From contig CAVRVY010000004.1 of the NCBI GenBank assembly GCA_963724765.1, forward strand, positions 832,001-896,000: a stretch of 64,000 bases of DNA, written 5' to 3'. Within the stretch, counting starts at the first letter, position 1, and the number at the start of each line of letters is the position of its first letter. The notes below the pieces were generated by a model, which was not told the DNA's origin, made no database searches, and saw only the letters and a list, made by a program, of their open reading frames with translations. The position numbers were made by a program, and so were the translations under genes. Shown here piece by piece: positions 6,873 through 47,355 of this stretch. Source of the DNA: an uncultured delta proteobacterium. GTDB lineage: Bacteria; Desulfobacterota; Binatia; Binatales; Binataceae.

Positions 6873-6880
6873 CGGCGCTC

Positions 6881-9319: not shown

Positions 9320-9369
9320 CCCTCCCGGCTTCCTCGCGGCCTCGTCGGATCGCAGACACGCACCGGCGC

Positions 9370-9861
9370 TCAGTTGAGCGTCGCGCGTAGCCGGGCCAGG
9401 TAGGCCTCGCAGGTGGTTTCGCCCGGCTGAATTTCGAGCGCGCGCTCGAACTCGCGGATCGCTTGCTGCAGCATCCCCTTGGTCGCGTACAAGCGTCCCA
9501 GGTTCATGTAGGGAAAATGGCGCGGCTCGTAGCGCGGCGCCTGCTTGGCCTGCTCCAGCCACGGGATCGCCTCGTCGAGTTCGCCCTTGGCGATCAAGTA
9601 GGCGCCGATGTCGTTATAAGGATTACCGAAGCCGGGATCGACCTCGATGGCCTTCTTGCACTCGCCGATCGCGTCGTCGACACGGCCGAGAAAATTGTAA
9701 GCCCAGCCACGAAAGGTGTAGGCCTCGGCTGTCGGGCAGACTTCGATCGACTTCGTGTACAGAACGATCGCGCCGTCGAAGTCGCCGTGCATGTGATGCT
9801 CGACGCCCTCGTTCCACAGTTCGAGCGCGCGCTGTTTGAGAGCGGAATCTTCCATTCGCAT
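9370..9861 (-). CDS. tetratricopeptide repeat protein
   Basis: TAEAYTFRGWAY, FGNPYNDIGAYLI, PYMNLGRLY TPR units; start re-called at MRMEDS. Confidence 0.85.
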   Translation of the reverse strand: MRMEDSALKQRALELWNEGVEHHMHGDFDGAIVLYTKSIEVCPTAEAYTFRGWAYNFLGRVDDAIGECKKAIEVDPGFGNPYNDIGAYLIAKGELDEAIPWLEQAKQAPRYEPRHFPYMNLGRLYATKGMLQQAIREFERALEIQPGETTCEAYLARLRATLN

Positions 9862-11440: not shown

Positions 11441-11453
11441 AGCGTCATCCCGA

Positions 11454-12407
11454 TCAAAATTTGACTTTCAGGATATGCCGAATCAGCAGAAAAGCGCCGA
11501 GATCGAGCCCGGCGGCCATCTTCAGAATCAGCTGGCCCGTGTGATCGAAAAACAACATTTGCGCATAGCTGGGCTGGACGATGCTGAACATCGCGAGCAC
11601 TACCACCGGCAGCAATCCCACCACCATCCCACTCATCCGGGATTGCGCGGTGAGCGCGCGAATCTGTGAGAACAGGCGCTGGCGGGTGCGCACGATGTCG
11701 GACAGCCGCGCGATGATCTGCGCCAGCGAACTGCCGACCTCGGCCTGCACCTTGACCGCGACCACGAATAACCGCAGGTCGTCCTCCGGTATCCGCGCCA
11801 GCATGTCGGCCAGCGCCTGCGAGACCGGCAGTCCAAGGCGCGTCTGCTCGACCACGGTGCGGAACTCGCCGCCCAGCGGATCGGCGAACTCCTGCTCCAC
11901 CACCTGCATCCCACGCTGCAACGTATGGCCGGCCTCGAGGGACGACTTGATCAGATCGAGCGCGTAGGGAAACTGGACCAGGAAGGCCTTGAGCCGGCGG
12001 GTCCGCTTGAACCTGATGTAGAATAAAGGCGTCACGCAAAGCGCCAGGCCCGCACCAATCGAAAGGAGCGGGTCGCCGGAGACCAGCATCCCGCCGGCGA
12101 TACCAGCCGCGAGCAATCCGCCCATCAGCAGCAGCGTTCTGTAAGCGCTTTGATACATCCCGGCCTGCCACATGTACTGTTCGAGCCGGCGCATCAGGTC
12201 CATTCGACGCAGGAGACCGCTAAACAGGCTGCTGGCGGCGCGCGAGCGGGGGCCGGTACGCGCCAGCGAGTCAATGACGTCGGATGAGCGAGTAACTTCG
12301 TCGAGGCGGTGCGTAACCGCGACGTGGTCCAGCGAGCGACGAACCAGCAGAGTGCCGACGCCGGCAAACAGCAGAAAGATCGCGCACGCGATTAAGAGAT
12401 CCATCAA
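11454..12407 (-). CDS. tadB: Tad pilus assembly membrane protein TadB
   Basis: QFPYALDLIKSSLEAGH, PLGGEF, RALTAQSRMS. Confidence 0.9.
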   Translation of the reverse strand: MMDLLIACAIFLLFAGVGTLLVRRSLDHVAVTHRLDEVTRSSDVIDSLARTGPRSRAASSLFSGLLRRMDLMRRLEQYMWQAGMYQSAYRTLLLMGGLLAAGIAGGMLVSGDPLLSIGAGLALCVTPLFYIRFKRTRRLKAFLVQFPYALDLIKSSLEAGHTLQRGMQVVEQEFADPLGGEFRTVVEQTRLGLPVSQALADMLARIPEDDLRLFVVAVKVQAEVGSSLAQIIARLSDIVRTRQRLFSQIRALTAQSRMSGMVVGLLPVVVLAMFSIVQPSYAQMLFFDHTGQLILKMAAGLDLGAFLLIRHILKVKF

Positions 12408-13780
12408 TCCGTCCCGGTTGACCGCAGGATGTTCTCGAGTTTGTAGCCGGCACGCTCGATGCGTTGCGCGTAGGCCGAGCGGATGCCGGTGCTGCGGTAG
12501 TGGCCGTGCACCGTGCCGCTCACGTCAGTGTCTGCGTGCACGAACTCGGACAGGTCCTGCATCATGATGGCCTCGCCTTCCATGCCGGTGACTTCGGAAA
12601 TCTTCATCATCCTGCGCGAGCCGTCGGACAGTCGCGCGACATGGACGATGATGTTAATGGCCGAGGCGATCTGCTGGCGCATCGCGCGCTGCGGGATCGA
12701 AAAGCCCGACAACAGCATCATCATCTCCAGACGGCCGAGGCACTCGCGCGAGCTGTTGGCGTGGATGGTCGCGATCGAACCGTCGTGGCCGGTTGACATC
12801 GCCTGCAACATGTCGAAGACCTCGGCCCCGCGCACCTCGCCGACGATTATCCGATCGGGGCGCATCCGCAGCGTGTTGCGCACCAGGTCGCGCGCCGTGA
12901 CCTCGCCCTTGCCCTCGAGGTTGGGCGGACGGGTCTCCAGCCGTACCACGTGGGTCTGTTGCAGCAATAACTCGGCCGAATCCTCGATGGTGACGATACG
13001 TTCGTCGGACGGCACGAAACTCGAAAGACAGTTGAGCATCGTGGTCTTGCCCGAGCCGGTGCCGCCGCAGACCAGCAGATTAAGCCGCGCCTTAACCACT
13101 GCCTGGAGTAACGTCACCATCTCCGGCGAGATGCTGTCCTTGGCCAGCAGATCGGCGATCGAGTAGCGCTTTTTGCCGAAGCGCCGGATCGAAAGCGAAG
13201 GCCCGTCGATCGCCAGCGGCGGAATGATCGCGTTGATGCGCGATCCGTCGCGCAGGCGCGCATCAACCATCGGCGATGACTCGTCGACCCGCCGCCCGAC
13301 CTGCGAAACGATGCGGTCGATGATCAGCATCAGATGATGATCGTCGTGGAAGTGGATTCCGGTCTCGTGCAGCTTGCCGTGCTTTTCCACGTAGACGTGA
13401 TCGCGTCCGTTGACCATGATGTCGGTTACGTCGTCGTCGCGCAGCAGCGGCTCCAGCGGCCCCAAACCGAGCAGTTCGTTCTTGACCTCCTCGACCAGCC
13501 GCGCGCGATCGCCGTCGGTCAGCAGGCGTCCGTCCTCGTCAAGGGTCTCGCCGATGGCGGTTGTGACCTTGGCCGAGATCAGCGCCGGATCGAGCATCTC
13601 CATGCGCGAGACGTCCATCGACTCGAACAGCCGGTTGTGCACCTTTATCTTGAGTTCGCGCGTGGATTCCGCGGCCTCGTCCCGTGGGCGCCATATGGTG
13701 GCGCTGCCGCCAAGAAAGGCTCCCGGCTGCTCGACCGGCACTCGGTTATGGGCCTGTGATATCCTTTCGATGAGTCTCAC
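12404..13780 (-). CDS. tadA: Tad pilus ATPase TadA/CpaF
   Basis: [23 protein letters not shown], Walker [31 protein letters not shown]; GTG start after GAGGAG. Confidence 0.95.
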
Positions 13781-13792
13781 TACGCTCCTCCC

Positions 13793-15022
13793 TCAGGCAC
13801 GAGCACCGAGCGAGCCCAGCAGCCGGCTGACAAACCCAGGCCCCGGACGCGACTCGGCTTCGGCCGTGACTTCCTCGCTGGCGCCGAGGCGGTTCGCGAG
13901 CTCCGCGAAGGCGAGCACCAACGCGCAGTTGGGCGCCACCTGCGAAGGCATCTGCGCCGTCGCCACCGATTTTTCCATCACCCGTTCGTCGCGCGGAATA
14001 CGCGCGTAGATCGGGCACCTTAGTGTTGTGACGATCTGCGCCTCGGCGATCGGATGGCCCGGCTGATAGCGGTTGAGCACCAGCCGTGGTTCGATCCCGT
14101 CGATCCCCAGCCGCCCGAACAGCTCCATAAAACGCAGGGCCCGATGCGTCGCGGTCACCGACTGCTCGAGCACGTAAAGCACCTCCTCCGAGCGCTCCCA
14201 CGCGGCGACGGAGTTTTCGTCCACATGGTCACCGCAGTCGATCACGATGTAGTCGAACAGTTGGCGCAGCAGATCGAGCAGCTGCCCGACCGTGACGTCG
14301 GAAACTTCCTCGCTGTCCTCGATTCGGTCCGGGGCGCCCAATACGTAGAGCCCCGAAGCATGCTTGGTCAGCGCCGCTTCCAGGCTTATTGAATCCGGTT
14401 TGCGATCCAGGCGCGCCAGTGCGAGGATGCCGCGCTCGGGCTCGGCGCCGAACAGATGGCCCAGGCTGCCCTCCTGCAGATCGAGGTCCACCAGCACCAC
14501 GCGTACGCCGCCCTCGCCCATTAGCGCCCGGCCCAGGCTCGCGCAAAGCGTGGTAACCCCGGCTCCGCCACCCAGGCTGGCCACCGAAATAATCTTCCCG
14601 CCCGCGCGGCGCACGCTGCGCCGCCGCGCCTCGCTGACCTTGAGCAGCGGGCGCATAAGATCGCCCACCTTCAGCGGCCCAAACAAAACCTCATCGGCGC
14701 CCGCGCGCAGCACCCGGCACATCAGCGCCTCCGATTCCTCGCTCAGCAGCGCGAACAGAGATGGCCGCGGCGTGCGCTCGGATTCCTTCTGTAAATAGCT
14801 CAGGGCCTCCTCTTCGTCCGCGCCGAACAGGATCATCGCTACGTCGGCCTCCGCGCTGAGCGCAGCGGCCTCAGCAGGCTGTGCCTCCGCAATCGCCACG
14901 GCCGGATCGATCAGCGAGCGCAAAACCCCTCGCGCTTGCTCCATCTGGAGCGCATCGCGACCCACCAGGAGTACCGACAAACCGCCCTTGAACGTACCGT
15001 CCTTGCTGCTCGACCGTCCCAC
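13793..15022 (-). CDS. cpaE: CpaE/TadZ pilus localisation protein (degenerate receiver + MinD-like ATPase)
   Basis: RAGADEVL receiver remnant, deviant Walker A SLGGGAGVTT, LVDLDLQ, FDYIVIDC; start re-called at GTG 15022 after CAGGAG. Confidence 0.85.
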   Translation of the reverse strand: MGRSSSKDGTFKGGLSVLLVGRDALQMEQARGVLRSLIDPAVAIAEAQPAEAAALSAEADVAMILFGADEEEALSYLQKESERTPRPSLFALLSEESEALMCRVLRAGADEVLFGPLKVGDLMRPLLKVSEARRRSVRRAGGKIISVASLGGGAGVTTLCASLGRALMGEGGVRVVLVDLDLQEGSLGHLFGAEPERGILALARLDRKPDSISLEAALTKHASGLYVLGAPDRIEDSEEVSDVTVGQLLDLLRQLFDYIVIDCGDHVDENSVAAWERSEEVLYVLEQSVTATHRALRFMELFGRLGIDGIEPRLVLNRYQPGHPIAEAQIVTTLRCPIYARIPRDERVMEKSVATAQMPSQVAPNCALVLAFAELANRLGASEEVTAEAESRPGPGFVSRLLGSLGARA

Positions 15023-15198
15023 AACAATCTCCTGTGCGACGCGCCCCTCCCCCAAGGCACGCCTTCGTCCGCGCAACCGCCGGAGCTCGCGCCCGCGGTT
15101 CCCTTTTCGCGTCCACCGCTTAGAACCGTCCCTTACGGCCTCGCTTACCGGAGGCGCCGGCCGTCACCATCACTCACTGGCGGTGGTTCCTAAGCGGC

Positions 15199-26359: not shown

Positions 26360-29300
26360 TCAACTTCCGCGGCCGGCGACCGACACCTTGACCGTGGCCG
26401 GGGTGCCCGGCGCGGTGTCCGTCATCACCAGCGTCGCGGTCGCCCTGCCCGTCACCGTCGGCGCGAACTGCACGCCGATCGTCAGGCTCTGATGCGGCTG
26501 CAGCGTGAACGCTGCGGCACCCTGGGTGAGAGTGAACGGGCTGCCGATAGCGAACGCGCCTACACTGCCGTTCAGCACGCCGCGCGCCGCGTTGGTGACG
26601 GTGAAGGTCTTGGTGAGCGTGGTGCTTCTGGCGACCGGGCCGAAACCGAGCGTCGGCAGCACCGCGGGCGGTATCGGCGCTGCCAGGTTGACCACCAGAT
26701 GCCCGCCCACTCCTATGCCGCCGATCGGAAGGTTCACGCTCGGATGCGCCGGATCGTCGCTGATGATCGCCAAAGTGGCGCTAACATGACCGATGACCGT
26801 GGGCGTAAATTGTACGGTAACAAATTGCTTCTGGCCGGGCGCGAGATTAAACGTCCCGCCGCCCGCGCTCACGTTAAAGGGCGCGGCAAGTGCGCCAACC
26901 GACCCGGTGAGCATACCAATACCGCTGTTCCTGACCGCAAATCTCATCGACCCCGGCGTGACGCCGATTCCGACCCGGCCGAACCCCATACTGACCGGGA
27001 GCGCAAGCGTGCCCGCAACTCCGTGCCCGACAAGCGCGACCGTGAAGACCGGATGATGCAGGTCGCTGCTGGTGATGTTCAGGCTGCCGGTCGCCTTACC
27101 GATCAACGTGGGTGTGAACTGGATCGTCACCGCAGTTTTGTGCAAAGGCGCAATCGCGAATGGTCCGAATCCCGAAAGCACCGCGCAGGGCCGCGCCATC
27201 GCGCCCAGCGACACGGTCAGCGTCTTGTACGGGCTGAGATTATGGATGTTCACCACCCTGATCCGGGGCGCAACACCGATTCCCACCGAACCGAATAGCA
27301 TCGGCGTGGCGACCGAGAGCGTACCGCCCGGCACCGGTGTCGGAGTCGGTGTCGGTGTTGGCGCTGGTGTCACAACGGGGGTCGGCGTCACGATCGGAGT
27401 CGGCGCCGGCGACGGCGTTGCCGTGGGTGACGCGATGGGCGTCGGCGTTGGTGTCGGCACCGGTGACGGCGTTGCCGTGGATGACGCGGTCGGCGTCGGA
27501 GTCGGCGCAGCCGACGGCGTCGGTGACGCGATGGGCGTGGGAGTTGGGGTCACAATGGGCGTTGGCGTCGCAACGGGCGTCTGCGTCGGAGTCGGCGCCG
27601 GTGATGGGGTTCCCGTGGGGGACGCGGTCGGCGTGGGCGTGGCGATCGCTTGCGGATGGTCGTACTCGAGCATGCGGCTGTCGGCCGAATCGGCGACATA
27701 GAGATTGCCGGCGCTGTCCAGCGCGACTCCGTTGGGCGCGCACAGTGTGTCGGCGCTGGCCGTGACGACGCACTGCGTGTCAGTGTCGGTGGCACGGCCG
27801 AATACCAGGTCGGCGCTCGCATCGCCCGCGCCACTCTCGCCACTGGCCGCGTTGAGCGGAGTGTTGTACTCGAGGACGCGATTGTCGCCGGTATCGGTGA
27901 CGTAGAGATCGCCGGCGCTGTCGGCCGCGACGCTTGCGGGCTGGCAGAGGCTGTCGGGCCCCACACCGCCAATGTCGCCGTCGGCAATTCCGCGGTTGCA
28001 TCCGGTGGCGGTAAAACTACCGGCCTGGCCGAAAACGAAATCGGCGTTGGTGTCGCCGGCATCGTACTCGAACACCCGGCTGTTGCCATAGTCGGCGACG
28101 TAGAGATTGCCCGTCTGGTCGAGCGCCACGCCGGTTGGATTGCACAGGCTGTCTGGACCGGCGCCGTTGAGGTCGCCACCCGCGGCGCCGTCATTGCACG
28201 CGACCGTGGCGAAGCTCAAGTTTTGGCCGAAGACAAGATCCGCGGTGGTATCACCGGCGGAACCGGATATGCCGGGGGTGCCGCCGCCGGCCGCCAGCGG
28301 ATCGTCGTATTCGAGTACGCGGCTGTTATCGGTGTCGGCAACGAAGACGTCGCCCTCGGGGTCTACCGCGACCCCGCTGGGACGGTTGAGCCCGTCGACG
28401 CCGCCGCCGCTGACGACGGTGGTGAAGCTGCCGCCCTGGCCAAACACCTTCTGCGCGCTTTGTCCTGCGGTCATGCCGCTGCTGAAGGGCTGGGCGAACT
28501 CGAGCACGCGGTTGTCGTCGGCGTCGGCGACGTAGAGATTGCCTGCGCTATCGACGGCGACTCCACTGGGCTCACACAAACTGTCGGGGCCGACGCCATT
28601 TACGTCGCCGCCCGCCAGTCCGGCGTCGCACACGAAGCTGAAAAAGTCAGGTTGGCCGATAACCAGCGCGGCCGCCGCGCCGTCGGCAAACGCGCTTGCG
28701 CTGGTCCATCCGAGCACCCGGCTGTTGGCGGTGTCCGCGACATAGAGATGCCCGTCCGCGTCGATCGCGGGGTTCGCGGCCAGCACGTTGGTCGACGCCG
28801 GATTAGCCAGCTCGAGCGCGGCGGGGCCGCCAAAGTTATCCATGTTGTGCTCAAGGTCGGTCTGGCCGAGTTCGCGGTCGGCGATCGTGTCGCCGGCGCC
28901 ACTCTCGCCGCTGGCTGCGTTGAGCGGCGTATTGTAGACCAGCAGCCGGCCGTTGTCCGAGTCCGTGGCGTAGAGGTTGCCCGGGGCGTCAAGCGCGACG
29001 GAGGCGGGCGAACAGAGCGCGCCGGCATCGACCACGATTCCGAAGCCGGCCAACAGCCCGGTGTCGGAACCGTTGCACAGCGCGGTCGTGAAGCTCCCGG
29101 CCTGGCCAAACACCAGGTCGGCCACCGCGTCACCGGCCCCACTCTCGCCGCTGCCGCTGTTTAGCGGCGTGTTGAACTCCAGCAGGCGGCTGTTGCCGGC
29201 GTCGGCGACATAGAGATTGCCGGCGCCGTCGGTCACGAGTCCCTGCGGATCGGAAAGACTGTCGGGCCCCAGGCCAGCCACATCGCCGCCCCCGGCGCCG

Positions 29301-30364
29301 TCGTTCGCCCCGCCGGTGGTAAAGCTGCCGTTCTGGCCGAAGACATTGTCGGCGATGGTGTCGCCGGCGCCGGCCAAGCCGCTCGACGGATTGAGCGGCG
29401 TGTTGTATTCGAGGATGCGATTGTTGTTGGTGTCGGCCACGTAGAGGTTGCCGCTCGCGTCGGTGATGACGCCGGTTGGCCCGCACAGGCTGTCGGGCCC
29501 TGTGCCGCTCACATCGCCGCCCGCCGTGCCGTCGGCGCAGAGCTTGGTCGTGAAGCTGTTGCTCTGGCCGAAAACCATGTCGGCGAGCGCGTCGCCGGCG
29601 CCGCTTTCGCCGATGCCGGCGTTAAGCGGCGTGCTGTATTCGAGCACACGGCTGGCGCCGCTGTCGGCGATGTAGAGATTGCCGACCGCGTCAACCGCAA
29701 CCGCTCGCGGATCGCACAGGCTGTCGACACCGACGCCGGCGACGTCGGCGCCCGCGATGCCGTCGTCGCATCCGCTGCCGACAAAGCTGCCATGTTGTCC
29801 AAAAACCATCGCGGCCGCCTCGCCTTGGGTAACTCCGCTCAGAAATGGGCTGCTGAACTCCAACACGCGATTGTCGATGCTGTCGGCGACGTAGAGATTG
29901 CCGGCGCTGTCGACCGCGACACCCTCGGGTCCGCACAGACTGTCGGCGCCCATCCCGCCCACGTCACCACCCGCCGCGCCGTCGTCGCATCGGTAGCTGT
30001 AAAAATCTGGCTGGCCGATCACGATACTGGCCGGAGCTCCGTTGTTGAACATGCTCGCACTGGTCCATCCCAGCACCCGGTTGTTGATCGAATCCCCGAC
30101 GTACAGATGACCAGCCGCATCGACCGCCACGCCGGTCGGGCCGGAAAGCGCGTCCGCGCCGCCAAAGTCGAACATGCTGTGGGTGAAATCAACTTCGCCC
30201 AACTCGCGATCGGCGGTAGTATCGCCGGCGGTTCCAGGTGTGCCCGCGACCGCCACGCGCACGAACGACAACGCCGCAGCGACTGCCAGCGCGGCGAACA
30301 CTGCTCCAACGGAAAGATAGTTACCGCCGCCGGCAAAGCGGCGGCGCCTTGGATGGATACCCAT
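26360..30364 (-). CDS. large secreted/surface protein: NHL-repeat propellers, Pro-Thr linker, three Ig-like (ASH/choice-of-anchor D-like) domains
   Basis: Signal peptide; repeated P.GVAVD..GNLYVAD..N.RVLE; ~100-aa PTPT linker; repeated FG.V....VQF.PT domains. Confidence 0.85.
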
Positions 30365-32569: not shown

Positions 32570-33038
32570 CCATCGCGCAAGCAGAACTTCCGGATGGCGA
32601 CGGCTTTGGGCTGGTCGTGGCCAGAGCTATGTCGAGTTGGCCTTCGCGCTTCCAGTACTTGCGATTGTTTTGGTGGTGGCAGCCGATTTCGGACGGCTCT
32701 TCTACACTTATGTCGAGGTGATCAATGCAGCGCGCGCCGCGGCGCAATATGGATCGAATAGCGTCGTTACCGCCGCCAACTCGACCGGGATGATTGCCGC
32801 GGCTAAGCAGGATGGCGTGAATGTGGCCAATTTGACGGTGACCGCCAGCCAGTGTACGTGCGCAACCGCGACCTCATCTGTTCCCGCCTGTTCATCGAAC
32901 TACTGCACCGATGATCCGCAGGGAAACTATGTTGTCGTCAATGCACAGGCTCCGTTTGCCACAATAATGAAATACCCGGGAATTCCCTCCTCCGTCACCC
33001 TCGACAGTCAGGCCGTGATGCAAGTTCAGCAACAATGA
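32562..33038 (+). CDS. tadE: TadE-like pseudopilin
   Basis: RGQSYVELAFALPVL, DFGR, AARAAAQYG. Confidence 0.88.
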   Translation: MNSHRASRTSGWRRLWAGRGQSYVELAFALPVLAIVLVVAADFGRLFYTYVEVINAARAAAQYGSNSVVTAANSTGMIAAAKQDGVNVANLTVTASQCTCATATSSVPACSSNYCTDDPQGNYVVVNAQAPFATIMKYPGIPSSVTLDSQAVMQVQQQ

Positions 33039-33469
33039 GAAGACCTTTCATTGCTGTGGTTGCGAAGCGTACGCCTGGCGCAGGGACGGTGGAATTTGCG
33101 TTAGTGGCTACCGTCTTCCTTTTGCTAACGTTTGCGATAATCCAGATGGCGATAGTGGTGTACTCGTATAACACCATCAGCCAAGCCGCCCGCGAATGCG
33201 TGCGCTACGCCATCGTGCATTCGCCTACTGGCCCCAACCCGGCGACGACCGCTCAGATCGAGAACGTCACGGTTGGTTATGCTGACGTGCCTGCACCAAA
33301 CCAGCTAACGCCGAGCGGGGTTACGGTGACTTGGCCAGCCGATTCGAGTCTTCCCTCGCAGGCCGATGCGCAGTGCAGCATCTCTTTGAAATACAACCTG
33401 CAGATACCTTTTCTGCCATCGATGACGCTGCCGCTTACCGCTAGCGCACGGATGCTGGTTTCTCAGTAA
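33035..33469 (+). CDS. tadE: TadE/TadF-like pseudopilin
   Basis: GAGTVEFALVATVF, QAARECVRYA. Confidence 0.85.
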   Translation: MRRPFIAVVAKRTPGAGTVEFALVATVFLLLTFAIIQMAIVVYSYNTISQAARECVRYAIVHSPTGPNPATTAQIENVTVGYADVPAPNQLTPSGVTVTWPADSSLPSQADAQCSISLKYNLQIPFLPSMTLPLTASARMLVSQ

Positions 33470-34560: not shown

Positions 34561-34597
34561 AGTTTCTCCCGCGGGATTTTATAAATTCGCGGTGCCG

Positions 34598-34981
34598 CTA
34601 TTTGCGCTCGATCAGCTCGATCTTGTAGCCGTTGGGATCCTCGACAAACGCAATCACCGCGCCGCCGAATTTCATCGGACCGGCCTCGCGCGTGACCTTC
34701 ACGCCCTTGTGCTTGAGTTCCTCGCAGGTCTTGTGGACGTCGTCGACGCCGACCGCGAGATGGCCGAATGCGGTACCCAGGTCGTAGCTCTTGGTCTCCC
34801 AGTTATGGGTGAGCTCGACGACCGTCTCGTCCTCCTCGTCGCCATAGCCGACGAAGGCCAGGGTGAATTTTCCGTCGGGATAATCCTTGCGCCTCAGCAA
34901 TTTCATTCCCAGCGCGCCGCAGTAGAACTTCAGCGTCTCGTCGAGATCGTTGACCCGGATCATCGTGTGCAAAAGCCGCAT
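34598..34981 (-). CDS. gloA: lactoylglutathione lyase (glyoxalase I)
   Basis: MRLLHTMIRV, ELTHNW, FGHLA, FVEDPNGYKIELIE. Confidence 0.95.
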   Translation of the reverse strand: MRLLHTMIRVNDLDETLKFYCGALGMKLLRRKDYPDGKFTLAFVGYGDEEDETVVELTHNWETKSYDLGTAFGHLAVGVDDVHKTCEELKHKGVKVTREAGPMKFGGAVIAFVEDPNGYKIELIERK

Positions 34982-35145
34982 CGTGGTTCTCCCTTGTTGG
35001 CACGCCCACTGCCGAGCGCCGCAAACGCGAGTGGTTCACTTTTTCATGGCCGTATTGGCTCTTTTTCCGCGATTGGGCGCGGGATGTCAATCGTGCCCTT
35101 GTGCGCCTACCTTCTTCGCAGCGCGACGGGCTCCGCAGGTTTTTT

Positions 35146-35211
35146 GCAGGGACGTTTCGGGAACCGCCCTTCTGATTCAGATCTGACGGGCCGTTCTCTA
35201 ACGGCCCCTAC
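35146..35211. repeat. inverted REP doublet (REPIN-like)
   Basis: Minus strand GTAG-GGGCCGTT-AGAG-AACGGCCC facing a degenerate plus-strand GCAG-GGACGTTT-CGGG-AACCGCCC. Confidence 0.55.
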
Positions 35212-35335
35212 AAAACCCGATTGGGGGCGCGCTGTCTTGCCGCGCTGCCGCCCCGGCGAGGCTTTGAAAACCGGATGTGATATGCATTTTTGGAAGCTGC
35301 GGGCTCGCAGAGTAAGGAGGCACGCAAGGAGGCAA

Positions 35336-36517
35336 ATGGACTTCAACTACAGTCCCGAGGACGAGGCGTTTCGGGCCGAGTTCCGCGCCTGGCTTGAAAA
35401 AAACCGCCAGTACGCCACACCCGCGCGCGAGCCGCTGACCGACGAATCCGACGACGAGTGGGAGGCGCGCCTGCGATGGCATCGCAAGCTCAACGAGGGC
35501 GGATGGATCGGACTTAGCTGGCCCAGGGAGTACGGTGGCCGCGGCGCATCCCTGCTCCAGAGCATCATCTATGAGCAGGAGCTCGAGCGCGCCGGCACCG
35601 CCGTGCCGTTCGTCGGCTTCGGCATTTCGCTGCTCGGTCCCACGCTTATCCACTGGGGCACCGACGAACAGAAACGCCGCCATCTGCCCAGGATTTTCAC
35701 CGCCGAGGAAATCTGGTGTCAGGGCTACTCGGAACCCAACTCGGGCTCCGACCTGGCCTCGGTGCAGACCCGCGCGGTCGAAGAGGGCGATTACTTCGTC
35801 GTCAACGGATCGAAAATCTGGACCTCCTCTGCGCATCACGCCGACTGGATATTTCTGCTCACGCGCACCGATACCGAGGCGCCCAAACACAAGGGCATCA
35901 GTTACCTGCTGGTCGATATGAAAACGCCCGGAGTTACCGTGCGGCCGCTGGTCCAGATGACCGGCGCGCGCGGCTTCAACCAGGTCTTCTTCGAAGACGT
36001 CCGCGTGCCCAAGGCTAACATCGTCGGGCACAAGAACCAGGGATGGCAGGTCGCGATCACCACGCTGATGTTCGAACGCTCGGGCGGCCATGACCGGGGG
36101 CTGATGCGCCAAGTGCGCGAGCTGACGACACTCGCGAAGCGGCTGCCGCGCAATGGGCGCAACGCCTGGGACGACACCAGCGTGCGACAGCGGATCGCGC
36201 AGTTCGCGATGGAGGTCGAGGCGATCAAGTACACGGGCTTTCGCAACCTCACGCGCCAGCTCAAGGGACTGCCGCCGGGGCCGGAGGGCTCGATGATGAA
36301 GCTGTGCGCCACCGAGCTGGGCTTGAAGATCGCGATGTTCGCGATGGAATTGCTGGGGCCGTATAGCCAGTTCGAGTACGGTGCGGCCTTCGCCATGGAT
36401 CACGGCACCTGGTCGCAGCGGATGCTGGCGGCGCGTGGCCCGACGATCTACGCCGGGACCAACCAGATCCAGCACAACATCATCGGCGAGCGCGTGCTGG
36501 GCCTGCCCAAGGGATAG
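35336..36517 (+). CDS. acyl-CoA dehydrogenase
   Basis: Start re-called at MDFNYS; WCQGYSEPNSGSDLAS, FNQVFFEDV, TTLMFER, IIGERVLGLPK. Confidence 0.93.
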   Translation: MDFNYSPEDEAFRAEFRAWLEKNRQYATPAREPLTDESDDEWEARLRWHRKLNEGGWIGLSWPREYGGRGASLLQSIIYEQELERAGTAVPFVGFGISLLGPTLIHWGTDEQKRRHLPRIFTAEEIWCQGYSEPNSGSDLASVQTRAVEEGDYFVVNGSKIWTSSAHHADWIFLLTRTDTEAPKHKGISYLLVDMKTPGVTVRPLVQMTGARGFNQVFFEDVRVPKANIVGHKNQGWQVAITTLMFERSGGHDRGLMRQVRELTTLAKRLPRNGRNAWDDTSVRQRIAQFAMEVEAIKYTGFRNLTRQLKGLPPGPEGSMMKLCATELGLKIAMFAMELLGPYSQFEYGAAFAMDHGTWSQRMLAARGPTIYAGTNQIQHNIIGERVLGLPKG

Positions 36518-40468: not shown

Positions 40469-41722
40469 TTGGCCGCACACAGCTTGCCAGGCAGCTTGCC
40501 CTCGCCTGTCCATCATAAGCCCCGTTTCCTCATCGCCGATCGAATCGCCAATCGCGCATCTCGGTCCGCCAGCGTCATACGGATCGCGCGGATCGGAGCC
40601 GCCATCACGCTCGCCGCCGCGCTCGGCGCGGGATGCTCGAAGTCCGGGCCCGTCGCCACCGGCGGCTTCATGAACGGACCCGTCCCGGTGCTGATTGCCC
40701 AGGCCGTACAGAAGACGGTCCCGATTCAGCTCCATGCCATCGGCACGGTCGAGGCCTACTCGACCGTCTCGGTGAGGTCGCAGATCGATGGCAAAATCGC
40801 CGAGGTTCATTTCCACGAAGGCCAGGACGTAAGAAAGGGCGACCCGCTGGTCACGATCGATCCGCGCCCGCTCGAGGCGTCCCTGCATCAGGCCCAGGCC
40901 AATCTCGCCCGCGACCGCGCGCAGCTTGCGCAGGCAACCAACGACGATAAGCGCTACGGCTACCTGTTGGAGCAGCACGTGGGTTCGCGCGAGCAATACG
41001 ACCAGGCCCATGCCACCGCACAGGCGCTGCGCGCGACCGTGATGGCTGACCAGGCGGCCGAGCAGACGGCGCAGCTCAACCTCGAGTACACCGAGATCCG
41101 TTCGCCGATCGACGGCCGCACCGGCAACCTGATGCTGCATCCGGGCAACCTGGTCAAGGCCAACGATTCCGCCAGCGCGATCGTCGTGATCAACCAGCTC
41201 CAGCCGATCTACGTCGATTTCAACGTGCCCGAGAAGGACCTCGACGAGGTCCGCCGCGACATGAGCGGCCATCAGCTCGCCGTGCTGGTGCGGCCTCGCA
41301 GCCGGGAACTCCAGGCGGCTTCGGAGAGCGGCACGCTCAGCTTCATCGACAACGCCGTCAACGCCAACACCGGCACCTTCGAGCTCAAGGGGATATTCGC
41401 CAATCAAACGCAACGGCTGTGGCCGGGCCAGTTCGTCGACGTCACTTTGACTCTCAGCGAACTCCCGGACACAATTCTGGTGCCGTCGCAAGCAGTGCAA
41501 ACGGGACAGGACGGATCCTTCGTGTTCGTAGTCGAACGGGATATGTCGGCCAAGACACGTCCGGTGGTAGTGGGCGACTCGCTCGAGGGTCAAACGGTGA
41601 TCAAGCGCGGACTCAAAGCCGGTGAAACGGTGGTCACCGACGGCCAATTGCGCCTGTTCCCAGGCGCCAAGGTGAAAATCAAGAGCGGACTGGATCAGCC
41701 GGCGCAGCAGGTGCCCTCGTGA
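40469..41722 (+). CDS. RND efflux periplasmic adaptor (MdtA-like); start uncertain
   Basis: Lipobox LGAGC, IGTVEAYSTV, IRSPIDGRTG, LWPGQFV, VVTDGQ. Confidence 0.9.
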   Translation: MAAHSLPGSLPSPVHHKPRFLIADRIANRASRSASVIRIARIGAAITLAAALGAGCSKSGPVATGGFMNGPVPVLIAQAVQKTVPIQLHAIGTVEAYSTVSVRSQIDGKIAEVHFHEGQDVRKGDPLVTIDPRPLEASLHQAQANLARDRAQLAQATNDDKRYGYLLEQHVGSREQYDQAHATAQALRATVMADQAAEQTAQLNLEYTEIRSPIDGRTGNLMLHPGNLVKANDSASAIVVINQLQPIYVDFNVPEKDLDEVRRDMSGHQLAVLVRPRSRELQAASESGTLSFIDNAVNANTGTFELKGIFANQTQRLWPGQFVDVTLTLSELPDTILVPSQAVQTGQDGSFVFVVERDMSAKTRPVVVGDSLEGQTVIKRGLKAGETVVTDGQLRLFPGAKVKIKSGLDQPAQQVPS

Positions 41723-44700
41723 ACCTGGCCGAGGGCTTCATCCGCCGCCCGGTGATGACGACGCTGATTTCGCTGGCGATCGTTTTCTTCGGCTTGATGG
41801 CCTACCGGATGCTGCCGGTAAGCGACCTGCCCAACGTCGACTTTCCCACCCTCGTGGTCAGCGCCACCTTGCCTGGCGCCAGCCCCGAGACGATCGCCTC
41901 GTCGATCGCAACGCCGCTGGAACGGCAGTTCTCGACCATCGCCGGCCTGGACCAGATGACTTCGACCAGTATTCAGGGCCAGACCAGCATCACGCTCGAG
42001 TTCGCGCTCGACCGCAACATCGACGCCGCCGCGCAGGACGTGCAGGCGGCAATCGCGGGGGCCCAGTCGCAGCTCCCGTTGGGGATGCCGAGCCCGCCCT
42101 CTTACGAGAAGGTCAACCCGGCCGACAAGCCGGTGCTCTACCTCGGGCTGAGCTCACCGACCCTGCCGCTCTCGCAGGTCGACGAGTACGCCGAGACTTA
42201 CCTCGCCGAGCGCATCTCGATGATCAGCGGCGTCGCGCAGGTCGCGGTGTACGGCTCGCAGAAGTACGCAGTGCGTATCCAGGTGGATCCGCAGGCGCTG
42301 GCCTATCGCGGCATCGGTATCGACGAGGTCGCGCAGGCGATCGAGAACGCCAACGTCAACCTACCCACCGGCACGCTCTACGGTTCGCATGAGGCCTTCA
42401 CCGTTCAGGCCAACGGGCAGCTCACTAACGCCGCCGCCTACCGGCCGATAATCGTGGCTTACAAGAACGGGGCGCCCGTGCGGCTGGAAGAAGTGGGGCG
42501 AGTGCTGGACGGCGTCGAGAACGACAAGGTGGCGGGATGGGTCGGCGACCAGCGCGCGGTGGTGCTCGCAATCCAGCGCCAGCCGGGCACCAACACGGTC
42601 GAGGTAGTGAACGCGATCAACAGGATCCTGCCGTCGTTCCGCACCGAGTTGCCGGCCTCGGTCAGCATTACGAATCTGTACTCGCGCGCGGATTCGATCC
42701 AGGCCTCGGTCGCCGACGTGCAGTTCACGCTGCTGTTGACCGTGTTCCTGGTGGTGATGGTGATTTTCCTGTTCCTGCGCAATATCTCCGCCACGGTCAT
42801 CCCGAGCGCCGCGCTGCCGATGTCGATCATCGCCACCTTCGCGGTGATGTGGGCGCTCGGCTACACGATCGACAACCTTTCGCTGCTCGCGATCACACTT
42901 TCGGTCGGCTTCGTGGTCGACGACGCGATCGTGATGCTCGAAAACATCGTGCGCCACATGGAGATGGGCAAGAGCGTGATGGAGGCGGCGCTCGACGGCT
43001 CGCGCGAGATCGCGTTCACGATTCTTTCGATGACCTTCTCGTTGGCCGCGGTTTTCATCCCGGTCCTCTTCCTCGGCGGGATCATGGGCCGCCTGCTGCA
43101 CGAGTTCGCCGTCACCATCGCCGCCTCCATCCTGGTCTCGGGCTTCGTCTCGCTGAGCCTCACCCCGATGCTCTGCAGCCGCTTCCTGCGCCCGCCCGGG
43201 GCCGAGCGCCACGGCCGCCTCTACCTGGCAACCGAGCGCGGGTTCGACCGGATGCTCGAGGGCTATCGCCGCAGCCTGTCCGCCGTGATGAATCATCGGC
43301 GCGCGACGCTCGCGGTAGCGCTGGGATTGCTGCTGGCGACTTTCTACCTGATCGCGGTCATCCCCAAGGGCTTCCTGCCCAGCGAAGACCAGGACCAGGT
43401 GCTGATGTTCACCAAGGCGGCGCAGGGGATTTCGTACGACTCGATGGTCAGGCACCAGGAGGCGATCGCCGATATCATCCGGCGCGATCCCAACGTCACG
43501 ACTTATTTCTCCAGCGCCGGCGCAACCGGTTTCAGCGGCAGCGGCAACACCGGCATCCTGTTCGCGCGCCTGAAGCCGCGCAGCGAGCGCAAGCTGAACG
43601 TCGACCAGATAATGGCTGAGCTGCGGCCCAAGCTGGCCGCCGTGCCCGGCATCATAGCCTTTTTGCAGAACCCGCCGCCGATCCAGATCGGGGCCAAGTT
43701 CACCGAGGCCACCTACCAGCTCGCGCTGCAGAGCCCCAATAGCGACGAGCTATACAAGTACGCGCAGATCCTGGAGCACAAGATGCGCGGGATGCGCGAG
43801 CTGACCGACGTCACTAGCGACCTGCAAATCTCCAACCCGCAAGTCAACGTGGTGATCGACCGCGACAAGGCGCATTCGCTCGGCATCTCGGCCCAATCGA
43901 TCGAGGACGCACTCGACAGCGCCTACGGCCAGCGCCAGATCTCGACCATCTACGCGCCCAACAACGAATATCACGTGATCCTGGAAGTCGAGCCGCAGTA
44001 CCAGGCCAACCCGGCGACGCTCGCGCTGCTCTACGTGCGCGCGCAGAGCGGGCAACTGGTCCCGCTCGACACCGTCGCGCGCCTTCAACCCACGCTGGGG
44101 CCGCTCGAGATCAACCACTCTGGACAGCTCACCGCGGTCACCATCTCGTTCAACGTCGCGCCCGGGGTCTCGCTCGGCAAGGCGCTCGACGATGTGAAAC
44201 TGCTCTCCAACGACACCGTGCCGGCCAGCGTCAGCACCGCCTTCCAGGGCACCGCCGAGGAATTCCAGTCCTCGATGCGCAATCTCGGAATCCTGCTCGT
44301 GATGGCGATCCTGGTCATCTACATCGTGTTGGGCGTGCTCTACGAAAGCTTCATCCATCCGGTGACGATTCTCTCGGGATTGCCGGCGGCCGGCTTCGGC
44401 GCGCTGCTCACGCTGATGATCTTTCACATGGAGCTCGATCTGTTGGCCTTCGTCGGCATCATCATGCTGGTCGGCCTGGTCAAGAAAAACGCCATCATGA
44501 TGATCGACTTCGCGCTCGACGCCCAGCGCACCGAGGGCAAGAGCGCGGCCGAGGCGATCTTCGAGGGCAGCATCATTCGCTTCCGGCCGATCATGATGAC
44601 CACGATGGCGGCGCTGATGGGCACGCTGCCGATCGCGCTCGGGATGGGCGCGGGCGCCGACTCGCGCCGCCCGTTGGGCGTGGCGGTCGTGGGCGGGCTG

Positions 44701-44883
44701 TTCTTCTCGCAGCTCCTCACCTTGTACATCACGCCCGTCATTTACACGTATATGGAGTCCTTCCACGATTGGATAACCGGACGGCGCAGCCACCAGGCGG
44801 CTCCGGTTGAAGCGGGGCCTCATCTGCTGGGCGGCGGCAAGCGGGCCGAACGAGAACCTCCGCGCCGCCGCGCCGCGTCGTAG
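41719..44883 (+). CDS. RND efflux permease (MdtB/MdtC-like)
   Basis: FIRRPVMTTL, LPVSDLPNVDFPT, GFVVDDAIVMLENI, VKKNAIMMIDFA, RFRPIMMTT. Confidence 0.95.
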   Translation: MNLAEGFIRRPVMTTLISLAIVFFGLMAYRMLPVSDLPNVDFPTLVVSATLPGASPETIASSIATPLERQFSTIAGLDQMTSTSIQGQTSITLEFALDRNIDAAAQDVQAAIAGAQSQLPLGMPSPPSYEKVNPADKPVLYLGLSSPTLPLSQVDEYAETYLAERISMISGVAQVAVYGSQKYAVRIQVDPQALAYRGIGIDEVAQAIENANVNLPTGTLYGSHEAFTVQANGQLTNAAAYRPIIVAYKNGAPVRLEEVGRVLDGVENDKVAGWVGDQRAVVLAIQRQPGTNTVEVVNAINRILPSFRTELPASVSITNLYSRADSIQASVADVQFTLLLTVFLVVMVIFLFLRNISATVIPSAALPMSIIATFAVMWALGYTIDNLSLLAITLSVGFVVDDAIVMLENIVRHMEMGKSVMEAALDGSREIAFTILSMTFSLAAVFIPVLFLGGIMGRLLHEFAVTIAASILVSGFVSLSLTPMLCSRFLRPPGAERHGRLYLATERGFDRMLEGYRRSLSAVMNHRRATLAVALGLLLATFYLIAVIPKGFLPSEDQDQVLMFTKAAQGISYDSMVRHQEAIADIIRRDPNVTTYFSSAGATGFSGSGNTGILFARLKPRSERKLNVDQIMAELRPKLAAVPGIIAFLQNPPPIQIGAKFTEATYQLALQSPNSDELYKYAQILEHKMRGMRELTDVTSDLQISNPQVNVVIDRDKAHSLGISAQSIEDALDSAYGQRQISTIYAPNNEYHVILEVEPQYQANPATLALLYVRAQSGQLVPLDTVARLQPTLGPLEINHSGQLTAVTISFNVAPGVSLGKALDDVKLLSNDTVPASVSTAFQGTAEEFQSSMRNLGILLVMAILVIYIVLGVLYESFIHPVTILSGLPAAGFGALLTLMIFHMELDLLAFVGIIMLVGLVKKNAIMMIDFALDAQRTEGKSAAEAIFEGSIIRFRPIMMTTMAALMGTLPIALGMGAGADSRRPLGVAVVGGLFFSQLLTLYITPVIYTYMESFHDWITGRRSHQAAPVEAGPHLLGGGKRAEREPPRRRAAS

Positions 44884-44917
44884 CATCCGCCGGAGCGCCT
44901 GTGGCCTCTTTCCCCGG

Positions 44918-44958
44918 CGGCGCTCTTTATTTCCTGCGCGCAAGTGCGCGATAAATAA
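44918..44958 (+). repeat. direct repeat copy 1 (promoter-like)
   Basis: CGGCGCTCTTTATTTCCTGCGCGCAAGTGCGCGATAAATAA; near-identical to 47356-47395. Confidence 0.85.
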
Positions 44959-44997
44959 AGGTGGAGCGCAAACGACTTCCGTCAAACGGAGGACCCG

Positions 44998-45540
44998 ATG
45001 GCACGGCTCAGTTCGATCCCATTTGAAAAAGTCGATCCGGAGCTGCAGGCGGTCATGCGCGAGTATGACGTAGAACTCGGCGGTTCCGGATTTGTCCAGG
45101 TCCTGGCCCACGCACCGGAGGTCTTCAAAGACTTCATCAAATTTTACTTTCCTTTGGTCAGCACCACGCGTGGATCGGTCAACATGAAGTTGACGGAACT
45201 CGCCCGCCTCAAGGTTGCGGAAAAGAATGAGTGCGGCTTGTGAATGGGCGCCAGGTTTGCCTTGGCAAGGCAACAAGGACTGACCGAAGAACTGGTCGCT
45301 GAACTACCTCATTTTGAAAGCAGCCGAAAACTGACAGGCCAGGAAAAAGCGGCGATTCGCTTCGCCGAGATACTTGCGGGCGATCATCGGCAGGCCTCGC
45401 AGCAAACCTTCGATGTCTTGCGCGAGCATTTTACCGAAAGCGAGATCGTCGACCTCGGCTTCAGGATAGTGACCTTCGTCGGCTACGGCCGCTTGATTCA
45501 CGCCCTGGGTCTGGAGATCGGAAAGACCTGCCCGCTGTGA
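44998..45540 (+). CDS. AhpD/carboxymuconolactone decarboxylase family protein, probable selenoprotein (CxxU)
   Basis: Two abutting in-frame ORFs joined at GAG TGC GGC TTG TGA ATG = E-C-G-L-U-M; the fused 180-aa product has CMD features (ELARLKVAEKNEC, EKAAIRFAE, LREHFTESEIVDL). Confidence 0.82.
45255..45274 (+). promoter_or_regulatory. bacterial SECIS-like hairpin
   Basis: G-(T)-TTGCCTT-GGC-AAGGCAA-C: 7-bp perfect stem, G-first loop beginning 21 nt after the TGA. Confidence 0.65.
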
Positions 45541-45642
45541 GCAAACACAGCAAGCTTGATCCGAGTCCCGCGGCCTACAGCGCCTCCCGCGCTCCGCGCG
45601 GAAACTGTTTCGTCGGGAGGTTCAAAACAACCCGAGCGAAGA

Positions 45643-47082
45643 TTATCGATGAAGCTCCTCTAGTTTGCTGATATCGTACAAATTCAAGACCTCCTGTGCA
45701 GTCGGGACGGGAAATCCGACTCCATAACCGATGATGATCGTACCGCGGCTGTTCTGGAGGTCCATCACGGGTACGCCCGTGAAAGTCGTGGAATGGGCGC
45801 CCTGGTTCATCTCGGACCATTCGTTCGTATAGGTCTCGCTCCACTTCTTAGGATATTCCCAGATTTTCCACAATTTTCCGCCACGATCGAAGGCTACCTC
45901 GAACCAACTATCCCAGTTTTCCGAATCCCAGAAATTGAGCACGGCGCTATAGGGCGCGCGTGGGTCGATTGGCGTGCGTTCAATCACCGCGAATTTGCGC
46001 ATTGACCAACCCGGATCGTTCACGATGAGACCGTTCGTCCCGTAGCAGTGCAGGTAGAGCTTCTGCTGATCCATCAGCCCCAGAACCTCTTTCCAGCCGA
46101 GGAATTTCCACTTCCAGTCGAGCTCGCGGTCGGCGAACCCGTAAAAGTCGGCGATAGTATGATCGGTACCCATCATCGAATCAGACTTAACCTCGGCGGA
46201 AATGCGGCGCACGCGACGGAGCTGCGGAATATAGGCCCAGCCGTCGTCGGGACGATGAGGGTCGCTGTAGCGATAGACTATGAAAACCGTCCCACGAATA
46301 TCGAACGGCGCCTGAAACCCGGTAAACTCTTTGAACTCAAACAGTTTGGCGTCTGGCACTGGCAGTAGACCGCCATTCTTTTGCTCTTGTGCCAAGTGAC
46401 TGAAATAGACGCGGCGGTAATATGCTCCCAGGTTTCGCTGAAAGGAGCCTCCACCACCATATTCCTCGCTGATGTTAGGCGGAAAACGGGTTTTGATATT
46501 GAAGCCGGCAAGCCATTCCGAGGGCACTTCAGGAACTATCGACGGCTGCTCGCCGCTATGTTCGCCACCGAAACGAACCCAAGTCAGATTCCAGCTCACG
46601 CCGATGAGGCCAAAATTCTGCCAGCGATACTCGAAATTCCAGGCAGCCTTTAATCCTGAATCGGAATCTTCGGTACTCAGAGAGGCGTCGGAAAAGGGCT
46701 GTCCGCATACGTAGTTGGCCATGGTGCCATCTGGATTGAGCCTCACCTGGCTCTGATACTTCTCGGTGCACTCCATGTAGTCTTTACGCGGCTGGTGGCT
46801 TTGGACCCGTTGAACAGCCAGCTTGAACTCTGGAAAGTCAAGCTGCTCGATGAACCCCGGAATTATGAAGGGCCGCAGCTTGTCCGTGTCTTTCGAAGTC
46901 AGCACGTCGCCCGGCTTGAAAGCCGGTTTGGCATCTTGGTACTGATGCAGCCACTTGAGATAGGTGTCGAGAGTAAAAGTCTGAATGGCCTGCGCACTGG
47001 CGGGTGGTGCTTTAAGCGCAACGGTCAATAGCAAAAGGAGGAACCAAAACGATCGCACTCTTCGCAATTTCCTACTCTGCAT
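45643..47082 (-). CDS. DUF1329 family periplasmic protein (lipoprotein-sorting-like fold)
   Basis: Start re-called at MQSRKL (signal peptide ..ASA); G.PF, AAWNF, WAYIPQLRRVRRIS, FDRGGKLWK. Confidence 0.85.
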   Translation of the reverse strand: MQSRKLRRVRSFWFLLLLLTVALKAPPASAQAIQTFTLDTYLKWLHQYQDAKPAFKPGDVLTSKDTDKLRPFIIPGFIEQLDFPEFKLAVQRVQSHQPRKDYMECTEKYQSQVRLNPDGTMANYVCGQPFSDASLSTEDSDSGLKAAWNFEYRWQNFGLIGVSWNLTWVRFGGEHSGEQPSIVPEVPSEWLAGFNIKTRFPPNISEEYGGGGSFQRNLGAYYRRVYFSHLAQEQKNGGLLPVPDAKLFEFKEFTGFQAPFDIRGTVFIVYRYSDPHRPDDGWAYIPQLRRVRRISAEVKSDSMMGTDHTIADFYGFADRELDWKWKFLGWKEVLGLMDQQKLYLHCYGTNGLIVNDPGWSMRKFAVIERTPIDPRAPYSAVLNFWDSENWDSWFEVAFDRGGKLWKIWEYPKKWSETYTNEWSEMNQGAHSTTFTGVPVMDLQNSRGTIIIGYGVGFPVPTAQEVLNLYDISKLEELHR

Positions 47083-47355
47083 AGTCCCACTCCTTGTCGG
47101 CCAAAGGTGGACGTAACACGCTCGCTGGCGCGATGCTGTCGCATGGTAGGGAGGAAAGGAATTTCCTGGATCGGCACTTCGCGTAATCCTTCGAGAGGGG
47201 TTCCCTCCCCCGAATAGAGCACCGAGCACCTGTAACAGCCGCATATCACAGTCAACCTGAGCCGTCAAACCGCTTGCACGAGCCTTTTACCGAACCCGAG
47301 ATCGTCGGAGATCAGAAAGACCTGCCCGCTGTGAGATGACTCGGGGCATCTCCGA

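Follow-up and report, generated by a model that had tools for sequence, protein, structure and literature searches.

On the forward strand of the 64-kb stretch of contig CAVRVY010000004.1 analysed here (hereafter the window), which probably belongs to a Binataceae genome, two open reading frames (ORFs) of 81 and 98 amino acids (44998-45243 and 45244-45540) follow one another in the same frame, with the TGA at 45241-45243 as their sole separator, an arrangement already noticed in an earlier note on this DNA and confirmed by the present analysis. Reading through this TGA gives a 180-residue product with the motif N-E-C79-G-L-U82-M-G-A-R, where U stands for selenocysteine (Sec), so that the TGA falls, as that note had also proposed, on the second Cys of a CxxC redox motif. 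It is very probable, in our judgement, that 44998-45540 is a single gene for an AhpD/CMD selenoprotein of the CxxU type, equipped with a bacterial SECIS element (for Sec insertion sequence), and residing in a Binatia-like genome (Table 1); comparison with related loci indicates that the UGA at 45241 is decoded as Sec and not as a stop, with a hairpin 13 nt further along the mRNA. The gene appears in two pieces because gene callers take the UGA as a stop.

Table 1. Elements of the predicted selenoprotein gene, in window coordinates
Feature	Position	Strand	Description
Shine-Dalgarno motif GGAGG	44988..44992	+	5 nt upstream of the start codon; read from the sequence
Predicted complete selenoprotein gene	44998..45540	+	180 codons, ATG at 44998, predicted Sec-UGA at codon 82, true stop at 45538-45540
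Cys79 codon TGC	45232..45234	+	First residue of the C-G-L-U redox motif; column at least 90% conserved (alignment A4)
In-frame TGA, predicted Sec82	45241..45243	+	Sec/Cys column in related loci; second Cys of PA0269
Putative SECIS hairpin	45257..45273	+	5' arm 45257-45263, loop GGC 45264-45266, 3' arm 45267-45273
Terminating TGA	45538..45540	+	No downstream hairpin

The Sec/Cys Column and the Reading Frame in Related Genes

A scan of 185,579 species genomes returned 503 confirmed relatives, the best 80 of which provide the codon counts given here. At the column of the window's TGA these 80 loci carry TGA (43 loci), TGC (32) or TGT (5), and none has TGG or any other codon, nor TAA or TAG, the two that the earlier note had regarded as incompatible with a Sec site. 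Kept relatives of at least 52% identity have TGA throughout, except for a TGC at loci L020 (Nevskia) and L024 (Rhodospirillales). The TGA forms are hosted by metagenome-assembled genomes (MAGs) assigned to Binatia/Binatota, "delta proteobacterium" and gammaproteobacteria, by Rokubacteria and Methylomirabilia, and by one Dehalococcoidia MAG, the hosts of the relatives in general being mostly Binatia and MAGs from soil or groundwater; marine "tara" proteins are also found among the relatives. In a quick maximum-likelihood tree of 79 rows, built with the Sec/Cys column masked and without L040 and L041 (both shorter than 150 aa), the distribution of the two states requires two Sec/Cys changes, against a mean of 26.6 when the labels are shuffled (none of 500 shuffles being as low), and the TGC pair L020/L024 is nested within a clade of 27 TGA forms.

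Closest to the window are the loci L001 to L004. Synteny at ~84-93% nucleotide identity links the window to L001 and L003, and the gene itself is 93% identical to its copies in L002 and L003 and 81% identical to that in L004, a Binataceae MAG. Substitutions are mostly synonymous, in one and the same frame, on both sides of the TGA: between the window and L001, 25 codons differ in the N-terminal half with three amino acid changes and 21 in the C-terminal half with one, and between the window and L004 the corresponding figures are 46 with nine and 47 with 11, a pattern by which both halves are judged to be under purifying selection in frame. The GGAGG motif and the start codon ATG 44998 are unchanged in the window and L001-L004, while the remainder of the upstream spacer is variable. 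Nothing beyond the in-frame stop itself speaks for a pseudogene born of a nonsense mutation or for an assembly error that produced the TGA, and against both stand the retention of the TGA in 43 loci of several phyla, among them four other assemblies whose nucleotide identity to the window is 81-93%, and the purifying selection that still acts on the downstream half in the same frame. Since the TGA is kept in these related assemblies it is not an assembly error, which also disposes of the read error for which the earlier note had allowed; such an explanation has next to no probability and is, in our view, already refuted.

In public protein sets the family is found largely in pieces. A word-indexed protein search gave 177 matches among 263 candidates, and among the best 120 of the 177, 12 proteins are full length (182-199 aa), one has 140 aa and 107 have 99-133 aa, the last covering just 42-55% of the query. 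When 16 of the 107 short proteins were aligned together with the 140-aa protein and all 12 full-length ones, each of the 16 proved to be a C-terminal half that starts at or past residue 83. An exhaustive search of representative proteins gave 1246 matches at E values up to 0.001, and public sets also hold N-terminal pieces terminating exactly at residue 81 (for example P0124, P0137, P0160 and P0169), alongside C-terminal ones that begin at residue 83-84. With more than 100 halves of this AhpD-like family on record, some relatives bearing the Joint Genome Institute name "alkylhydroperoxidase family enzyme", the mis-splitting by gene callers that the earlier note had suspected is borne out.

The 12 full-length proteins have Cys in the Sec column in nine cases and W in three (P0011, P0012 and P0013). 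These W residues, in predictions from close relatives, could be taken to mean that one of the standard amino acids (Trp, Cys or Gly) is inserted at the UGA without help from Sec machinery, whether by read-through or by a local reassignment of the codon, a proposal that also draws on the failure to see such machinery in the window or a tRNA-Sec in the flanks of relatives (see below). P0013, however, is 95% identical to the read-through product of L039, whose DNA carries TGA at this position, and its W is therefore most simply the output of a pipeline that uses a TGA=Trp code. Moreover, TGA serves as an ordinary stop here, closing 22 of the window's 48 Pfam-supported ORFs, this gene among them, and reassignment across the genome is thereby excluded; the homologous column holds Cys codons besides TGA and never TGG; and the downstream hairpin fits a SelB-type signal. 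Decoding as a standard amino acid thus seems highly improbable.

A Covarying Hairpin Downstream of the TGA

The hairpin, TTGCCTT-GGC-AAGGCAA, comprises 7 bp, with 13 nt (45244-45256) between the TGA and the stem and a GGC loop that starts 20 nt past the UGA; the stem, the G-first loop and the spacing had all been recognized correctly in the earlier note. RNAalifold, applied to the 36 TGA forms in which the register is that of the window, independently gives this exact 7-bp helix with its 3-nt loop, and GGC is invariant in 36 of 36 class-A sequences. Pairs were counted in the 28 distinct sequences derived from these 36 forms: 98.0% of cells are paired, a share that drops to 37-54% once the 3' partner is shifted by 1-3 columns, and double-sided changes occur in five of the seven pairs (for example, TCGCGCT/AGCGCGA, TTGCCCT/AGGGCAA, TTGCTTT/AAAGCAA and TGCCGG/CCGGCA). 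None of 500 shuffles reached the covariation score; kinship alone can outscore shuffles without any structure, but an artefact of this sort is countered here by the shifted controls and by how many distinct compensatory types there are. Some of the helix changes alter the peptide, as at L015, where F-A-L-A-R-Q has become F-A-L-A-A-R, so that the helix is kept at the protein's expense.

The hairpin also takes other forms. In seven gammaproteobacterial-type relatives the register differs and the loop is 4 nt long (three have GGTC, three AGTT and one AGGT); here 98% of cells are paired and two of the seven pairs show double-sided changes. The sequence in the Dehalococcoidia gene is CTCCCGT-GGTCG-ACGGGAG. 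In 41 of the 44 TGA forms, the window included, the TGA is followed by at least 6 bp of perfect Watson-Crick stem whose loop starts 17-21 nt past the codon, the three exceptions being due to a mismatch, a G-U pair or a length of 5 bp; among the Cys forms, scanned for loops 10-30 nt past the codon, a perfect stem of at least 6 bp occurs in three of 37 (loop at 11-26 nt). Both the covariation and this near-restriction to TGA forms support the suggestion, made at the outset from the one sequence, that the hairpin is SECIS-like.

Published limits for bacterial SECIS elements call for a loop of 3-9 nt with a G in its first two positions, a stem of 4-16 bp, a loop 16-37 nt past the UGA and a free energy of -7.5 kcal/mol or lower (PMC13188914), and the window hairpin lies within those for loop (3 nt), stem (7 bp), loop G and spacing (20 nt). 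Judged by a criterion of a perfect stem of at least 7 bp, a loop of 3-9 nt with G among its first two nucleotides and a loop 16-37 nt past the TGA, a comparable hairpin arises in 79 of 20000 shuffles of the 70 nt 3' of the TGA and turns up after 21 of the 1643 TGA trinucleotides that the window's two strands contain. Taken singly, then, the hairpin is only mildly unusual, and it is the comparison among relatives that lifts it well beyond chance.

In the minimal element of Escherichia coli fdhF, 11 nt separate the UGA from a hairpin of 17 nt whose loop is GGUC. The window's element resembles it in being a short hairpin at a fixed distance past the UGA with a G opening a small loop, and three relatives share the GGTC loop, whereas the window has GGC, a 13-nt spacing and no conserved bulged U. 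A bulged U at the base of the stem, raised as a possibility in the earlier note, is indeed feasible in the window (G45255-C45274, U45256-A45273 and U45257-A45272, with U45258 bulged; -5.2 kcal/mol versus -6.3 for the plain helix), but as a conserved feature it was rejected: its three extra pairs hold in 18, 18 and 23 of the 28 distinct sequences, and the outer pairs of the plain helix in 25 and 27.

Protein Family, Fold and Relation to Known Systems

The fused protein matches the Pfam CMD/AhpD family PF02627 with 33.2 bits (cut-off 23) over residues 40-124, a span that includes the junction, while neither half alone has any Pfam match at E values up to 0.01; the single 180-aa AhpD/CMD protein anticipated in the earlier note is thus recognizable only as a whole. 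An AlphaFold2 model, computed from a 50-row alignment, is all-helical and has the AhpD fold (predicted local distance difference test, pLDDT, 92.0; predicted template-modelling score, pTM, 0.86). It has 30 matches in the PDB at E values of at most 0.001, those listed being AhpD/CMD-family proteins, the debrominase Bmp8 included; the best are AhpD-core "peroxidase-related" structures (2prr, with a template-modelling (TM) score of 0.80, and also 3c1l, 2pfx, 2oyo and 6k40), PA0269 of Pseudomonas aeruginosa and Bmp8. In alignment A4 the residue-82 column, like that of C79, is at least 90% conserved, as is Arg86, four positions past U82, in Sec and Cys forms alike, and E67, 12 residues before C79, is invariant.

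These results also bear on whether the UGA could be a real stop, with an 81-residue piece and a 98-residue piece made by restart at UGAAUG and perhaps assembling into a split AhpD, akin to the two-chain product that the earlier note had envisaged. The window and 20 of the 43 TGA-bearing relatives do have an ATG directly after the TGA, and gene callers routinely start the C-terminal half there. In 23 of the 44 TGA forms, on the other hand, the next codon is none of ATG, GTG or TTG but AAG, AGG, ATC, ATA, ATT, CTG, CTC or CAG, and Met also follows the Cys in 33 of the 37 Cys forms, where a restart is needless, so that Met after Sec/Cys looks like a residue preference and not a start signal. No Shine-Dalgarno motif precedes 45244, neither half is recognized as a domain by itself, and a split gene would need neither a TGA placed exactly on the catalytic Cys column nor a covarying hairpin behind it. 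Restart and a two-chain product are, on this evidence, very unlikely.

Read as one selenoprotein, the gene belongs to a type described long ago, as the earlier note was right to say. A 2005 report on the Sargasso Sea described 27 AhpD-like CxxU selenoprotein sequences (COG2128; PMC1088965), one of 2008 on the Global Ocean Sampling data gave 299 "AhpD-like 1" and 70 "AhpD-like 2" sequences (pfam02627; PMC2398784), and AhpD-like selenoproteins are listed in reviews of 2022 and 2026 (PMC9312934; PMC13188914) and in BSepDB (PMC13326102). The window gene agrees with the AhpD-like family (COG2128/YciW, TIGR01926) in having CxxU at the CxxC site, a bacterial SECIS right after the UGA, a similar length (~180-190 residues) and many Cys homologues, and differs in falling short of TIGR01926 (46.0 bits versus a cut-off of 81.8), which therefore places it in a branch beyond the curated model. 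Its best NCBIfam match, over residues 1-154, is NF053654, a YciW-related (seleno)protein family likewise annotated Sec/Cys, of which it is not a member (54.7 bits versus 310), so that the NCBI annotation pipeline would not rescue the gene by that model; NF041047 (19.9 versus 110) and NF041238 (16 versus 175) are further still from their cut-offs. A full-text literature search brought up no publication in which Binatia or Binatota is linked to selenocysteine or selenoproteins, although published selenoprotein lists, those of PMC2398784 and BSepDB among them, may already include members of this branch.

Among proteins of known structure, Pseudomonas aeruginosa PA0269/AhpD (2ijc, 2o4d, 7xw1) has the same fold (7xw1, TM 0.62 by query length and 0.82 by target length), and its CxxC motif aligns with C-G-L-U, the TGA corresponding to the second Cys. 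PA0269 and the AhpD-core proteins 2prr, 2oyo, 2pfx, 3c1l and 6k40 match the family profile at E values of 8e-30 to 3e-14, and all are Cys proteins where the window's is predicted to carry Sec; PA0269 further lacks the first ~35 residues and has His four positions past its second Cys in place of Arg86. Bmp8 (6ohi, 6ohj) shares the ~190-residue architecture (profile E value 7e-17 over residues 13-178; 6ohj, TM 0.80), its C82A mutant chain scoring 5.9 bits lower against the family profile, but is a Cys protein of 15-17% identity from a natural-product gene cluster, and no such cluster surrounds the window gene. Mycobacterium tuberculosis AhpD (1gu9, 1knc), the reductase of AhpC, is of the same superfamily with the same kind of CxxC redox centre, but is only a marginal match (profile E value 0.23, TM 0.42), and linkage to ahpC is absent from the window gene, which is not a canonical AhpD of this AhpC-reducing type.

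Proposed Mechanism and Function

SelB-type decoding of UGA is an established mechanism in bacteria, and by analogy the hairpin would recruit SelB-GTP-Sec-tRNA(Sec) to a ribosome paused at the UGA, yielding an AhpD/CMD-superfamily thiol/selenol oxidoreductase that is 180 residues long and all-helical and has Cys79-Gly-Leu-Sec82 as its putative active site. In M. tuberculosis AhpD it is the second Cys of the CxxC that attacks, with help from a Glu that precedes the first Cys by 12 residues and a His that lies four past the second. If the family pattern holds, the selenol of Sec82, at this attacking position, would attack an oxidized substrate (perhaps a peroxide, the disulfide or sulfenate of a peroxiredoxin, or some other small electrophile), and the attack would lead to a selenenylsulfide with Cys79 that a cellular thiol system would then reduce.

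We commit ourselves to this extent, that the protein is predicted, from its likeness to characterized relatives, to be a selenol/thiol oxidoreductase cycling through a Cys79-Sec82 selenenylsulfide. Reduction of peroxides or peroxiredoxins is the default guess for its role, and Bmp8-like reductive chemistry, suggested by structural analogy, remains open; Bmp8 debrominates reductively, its own cysteines being oxidized to a disulfide (PMC5577590). The Arg-bearing branch (E67-x11-C79-x-x-U82-x3-R86) might accordingly be a selenium-dependent reductase of small electrophiles, such as a Bmp8-like reductive dehalogenase, and not serve in peroxide defence at all, with the selenol perhaps acting as in iodothyronine deiodinase. 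This is allowed by the want of an ahpC partner and of a conserved neighbourhood, and by a Bmp8 match that equals that of any "peroxidase-related" structure; even so, we rate it as improbable.

Evidence to the Contrary

Several results count against the gene's being an Sec-decoded member of this family, and they are brought together here. Pfam searches of the 106 candidate ORFs in the 64-kb window found no selA, selB or selD; the window has no tRNA at all and hence no tRNA-Sec, and none was found in the flanks of the 43 TGA-bearing loci. Among 89 flanking ORFs from 12 TGA-bearing and two Cys loci there is no recurring neighbour that would point to a substrate. The protein stays under the cut-off of every NCBIfam (seleno)protein model. 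As for the hairpin, taken alone at 17-23 nt it has -6.3 to -7.0 kcal/mol, short of the published -7.5, whereas the helix forced within 60 nt, flanks included, gives -17.0, so that passing the limit depends on how much flank is counted; a plain fold of 45241-45300 is no better than that of shuffled sequences (z = -0.65, with 60 of 200 folding equally well); and the hairpin overlaps the codons of the conserved peptide F-A-L-A-R-Q, its conservation being in part protein-derived. Rfam gave no match in the whole window at gathering thresholds and, for 45150-45400 at E values up to 10, a chance match to a ribosomal leader only, nulls that are uninformative for short bacterial SECIS elements.

We infer that the host genomes encode Sec-decoding machinery. 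Two TGA-bearing paralogues, each with its own hairpin, lie far apart on a single Binatia-type contig in three cases, OY761159.2 (L009 and L022), CBDDQA010000005.1 (L010 and L023) and CAVWXK010000001.1 (L036 and L038), and such contigs lend indirect support to the presence of this machinery, as does the second AhpD-like TGA gene at L015 and L018 (see below).

Other Features of the Window and Related Loci

At two of the related loci, a second and more distant AhpD-like TGA gene adjoins the first (L015, 10528-11160, forward strand; L018, around 9602, reverse strand). It has an in-frame TGA (H-N-A-C-T-L-U-R-G-A-V-Y) and the hairpin ATGCCTC-GGC-GAGGCAT at the identical 20-nt spacing, and its top NCBIfam match is again NF053654, far under the cut-off. 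At L034 (6232) and L038 (10244) the TGA and hairpin are kept and the upstream Cys is lost (S-S-A-K-P-U, with a two-residue insertion), the L038 variant adjoining thioredoxin, AhpC/TSA-Thioredoxin_10 and GST genes.

Scans of 44700-45800 in the window found no promoter-like site and, within the gene, one terminator-like site on the minus strand that does not exceed the shuffle level. A palindrome, CGCGCA-AG-TGCGCG, lies at 44937-44950, 47 nt upstream of the start codon; it was rejected as a conserved operator, being common to L001 only and not to L002-L004. The selenoprotein gene lies between an RND efflux pair (40469-44883) and, on the minus strand, a DUF1329/LolA-like gene (45643-47268). The latter, with a GC content at third codon positions of 0.63, lies within a segment of the window (45541-47317) missing from the syntenic L001 and L003, a difference that may reflect either an insertion in the window or a deletion in L001/L003.

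A scan of the window for other selenoprotein genes, in the form of TGA-joined pairs of coding segments, returned eight sites, and only the one at 45241 is credible, the other seven being adjacent same-frame genes or antisense shadow frames. XdhC-like and MocA-like genes at 6210-8071 were considered as the selenium-linked YqeB/YqeC and were rejected by NCBIfam. No ahpC adjoins the selenoprotein gene; the sole AhpC/TSA gene of the window, ~35 kb away, is a BCP/PrxQ-type peroxiredoxin ORF at 8867-9562 on the minus strand, which has no in-frame TGA, remains under the NCBIfam cut-offs and, as mechanically delimited, reaches its domain only from residue ~82-88. Elsewhere, an acyl-CoA dehydrogenase ORF (34592-36517, plus strand) has ~250 residues ahead of its first domain that overlap a well-supported glyoxalase-family ORF on the opposite strand (34598-34981), and because of this antisense overlap its start is probably placed too far upstream. 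The window also holds a Tad/type II secretion-like pilus cluster (10505-15076, minus strand) with two T2SSF genes, T2SSE and a ParA-like ATPase, a separate TadE-like gene (33035-33469, plus strand) and a 1334-residue NHL-repeat protein (26360-30364).

Significance

The result is a sound correction of an annotation, and since selenoproteins of this type have been known since 2005 the find is correct but ordinary: one more case of a well-known pattern in which Sec takes the place of the attacking Cys in a CxxC redox centre, and one that would raise a new question only if the substrate proved unusual. Its practical reach lies in the public protein records, in which this gene and more than 100 relatives stand either as a pair of fragments or under the label "hypothetical protein". 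Modelling the family on the 43 TGA-bearing loci, hairpins included, would correct these entries and would mark Binatia and several other uncultured lineages as users of selenium. If the interpretation is true, Binatia would count as a Sec-using lineage whose genomes each carry two or more paralogous AhpD-like selenoproteins.

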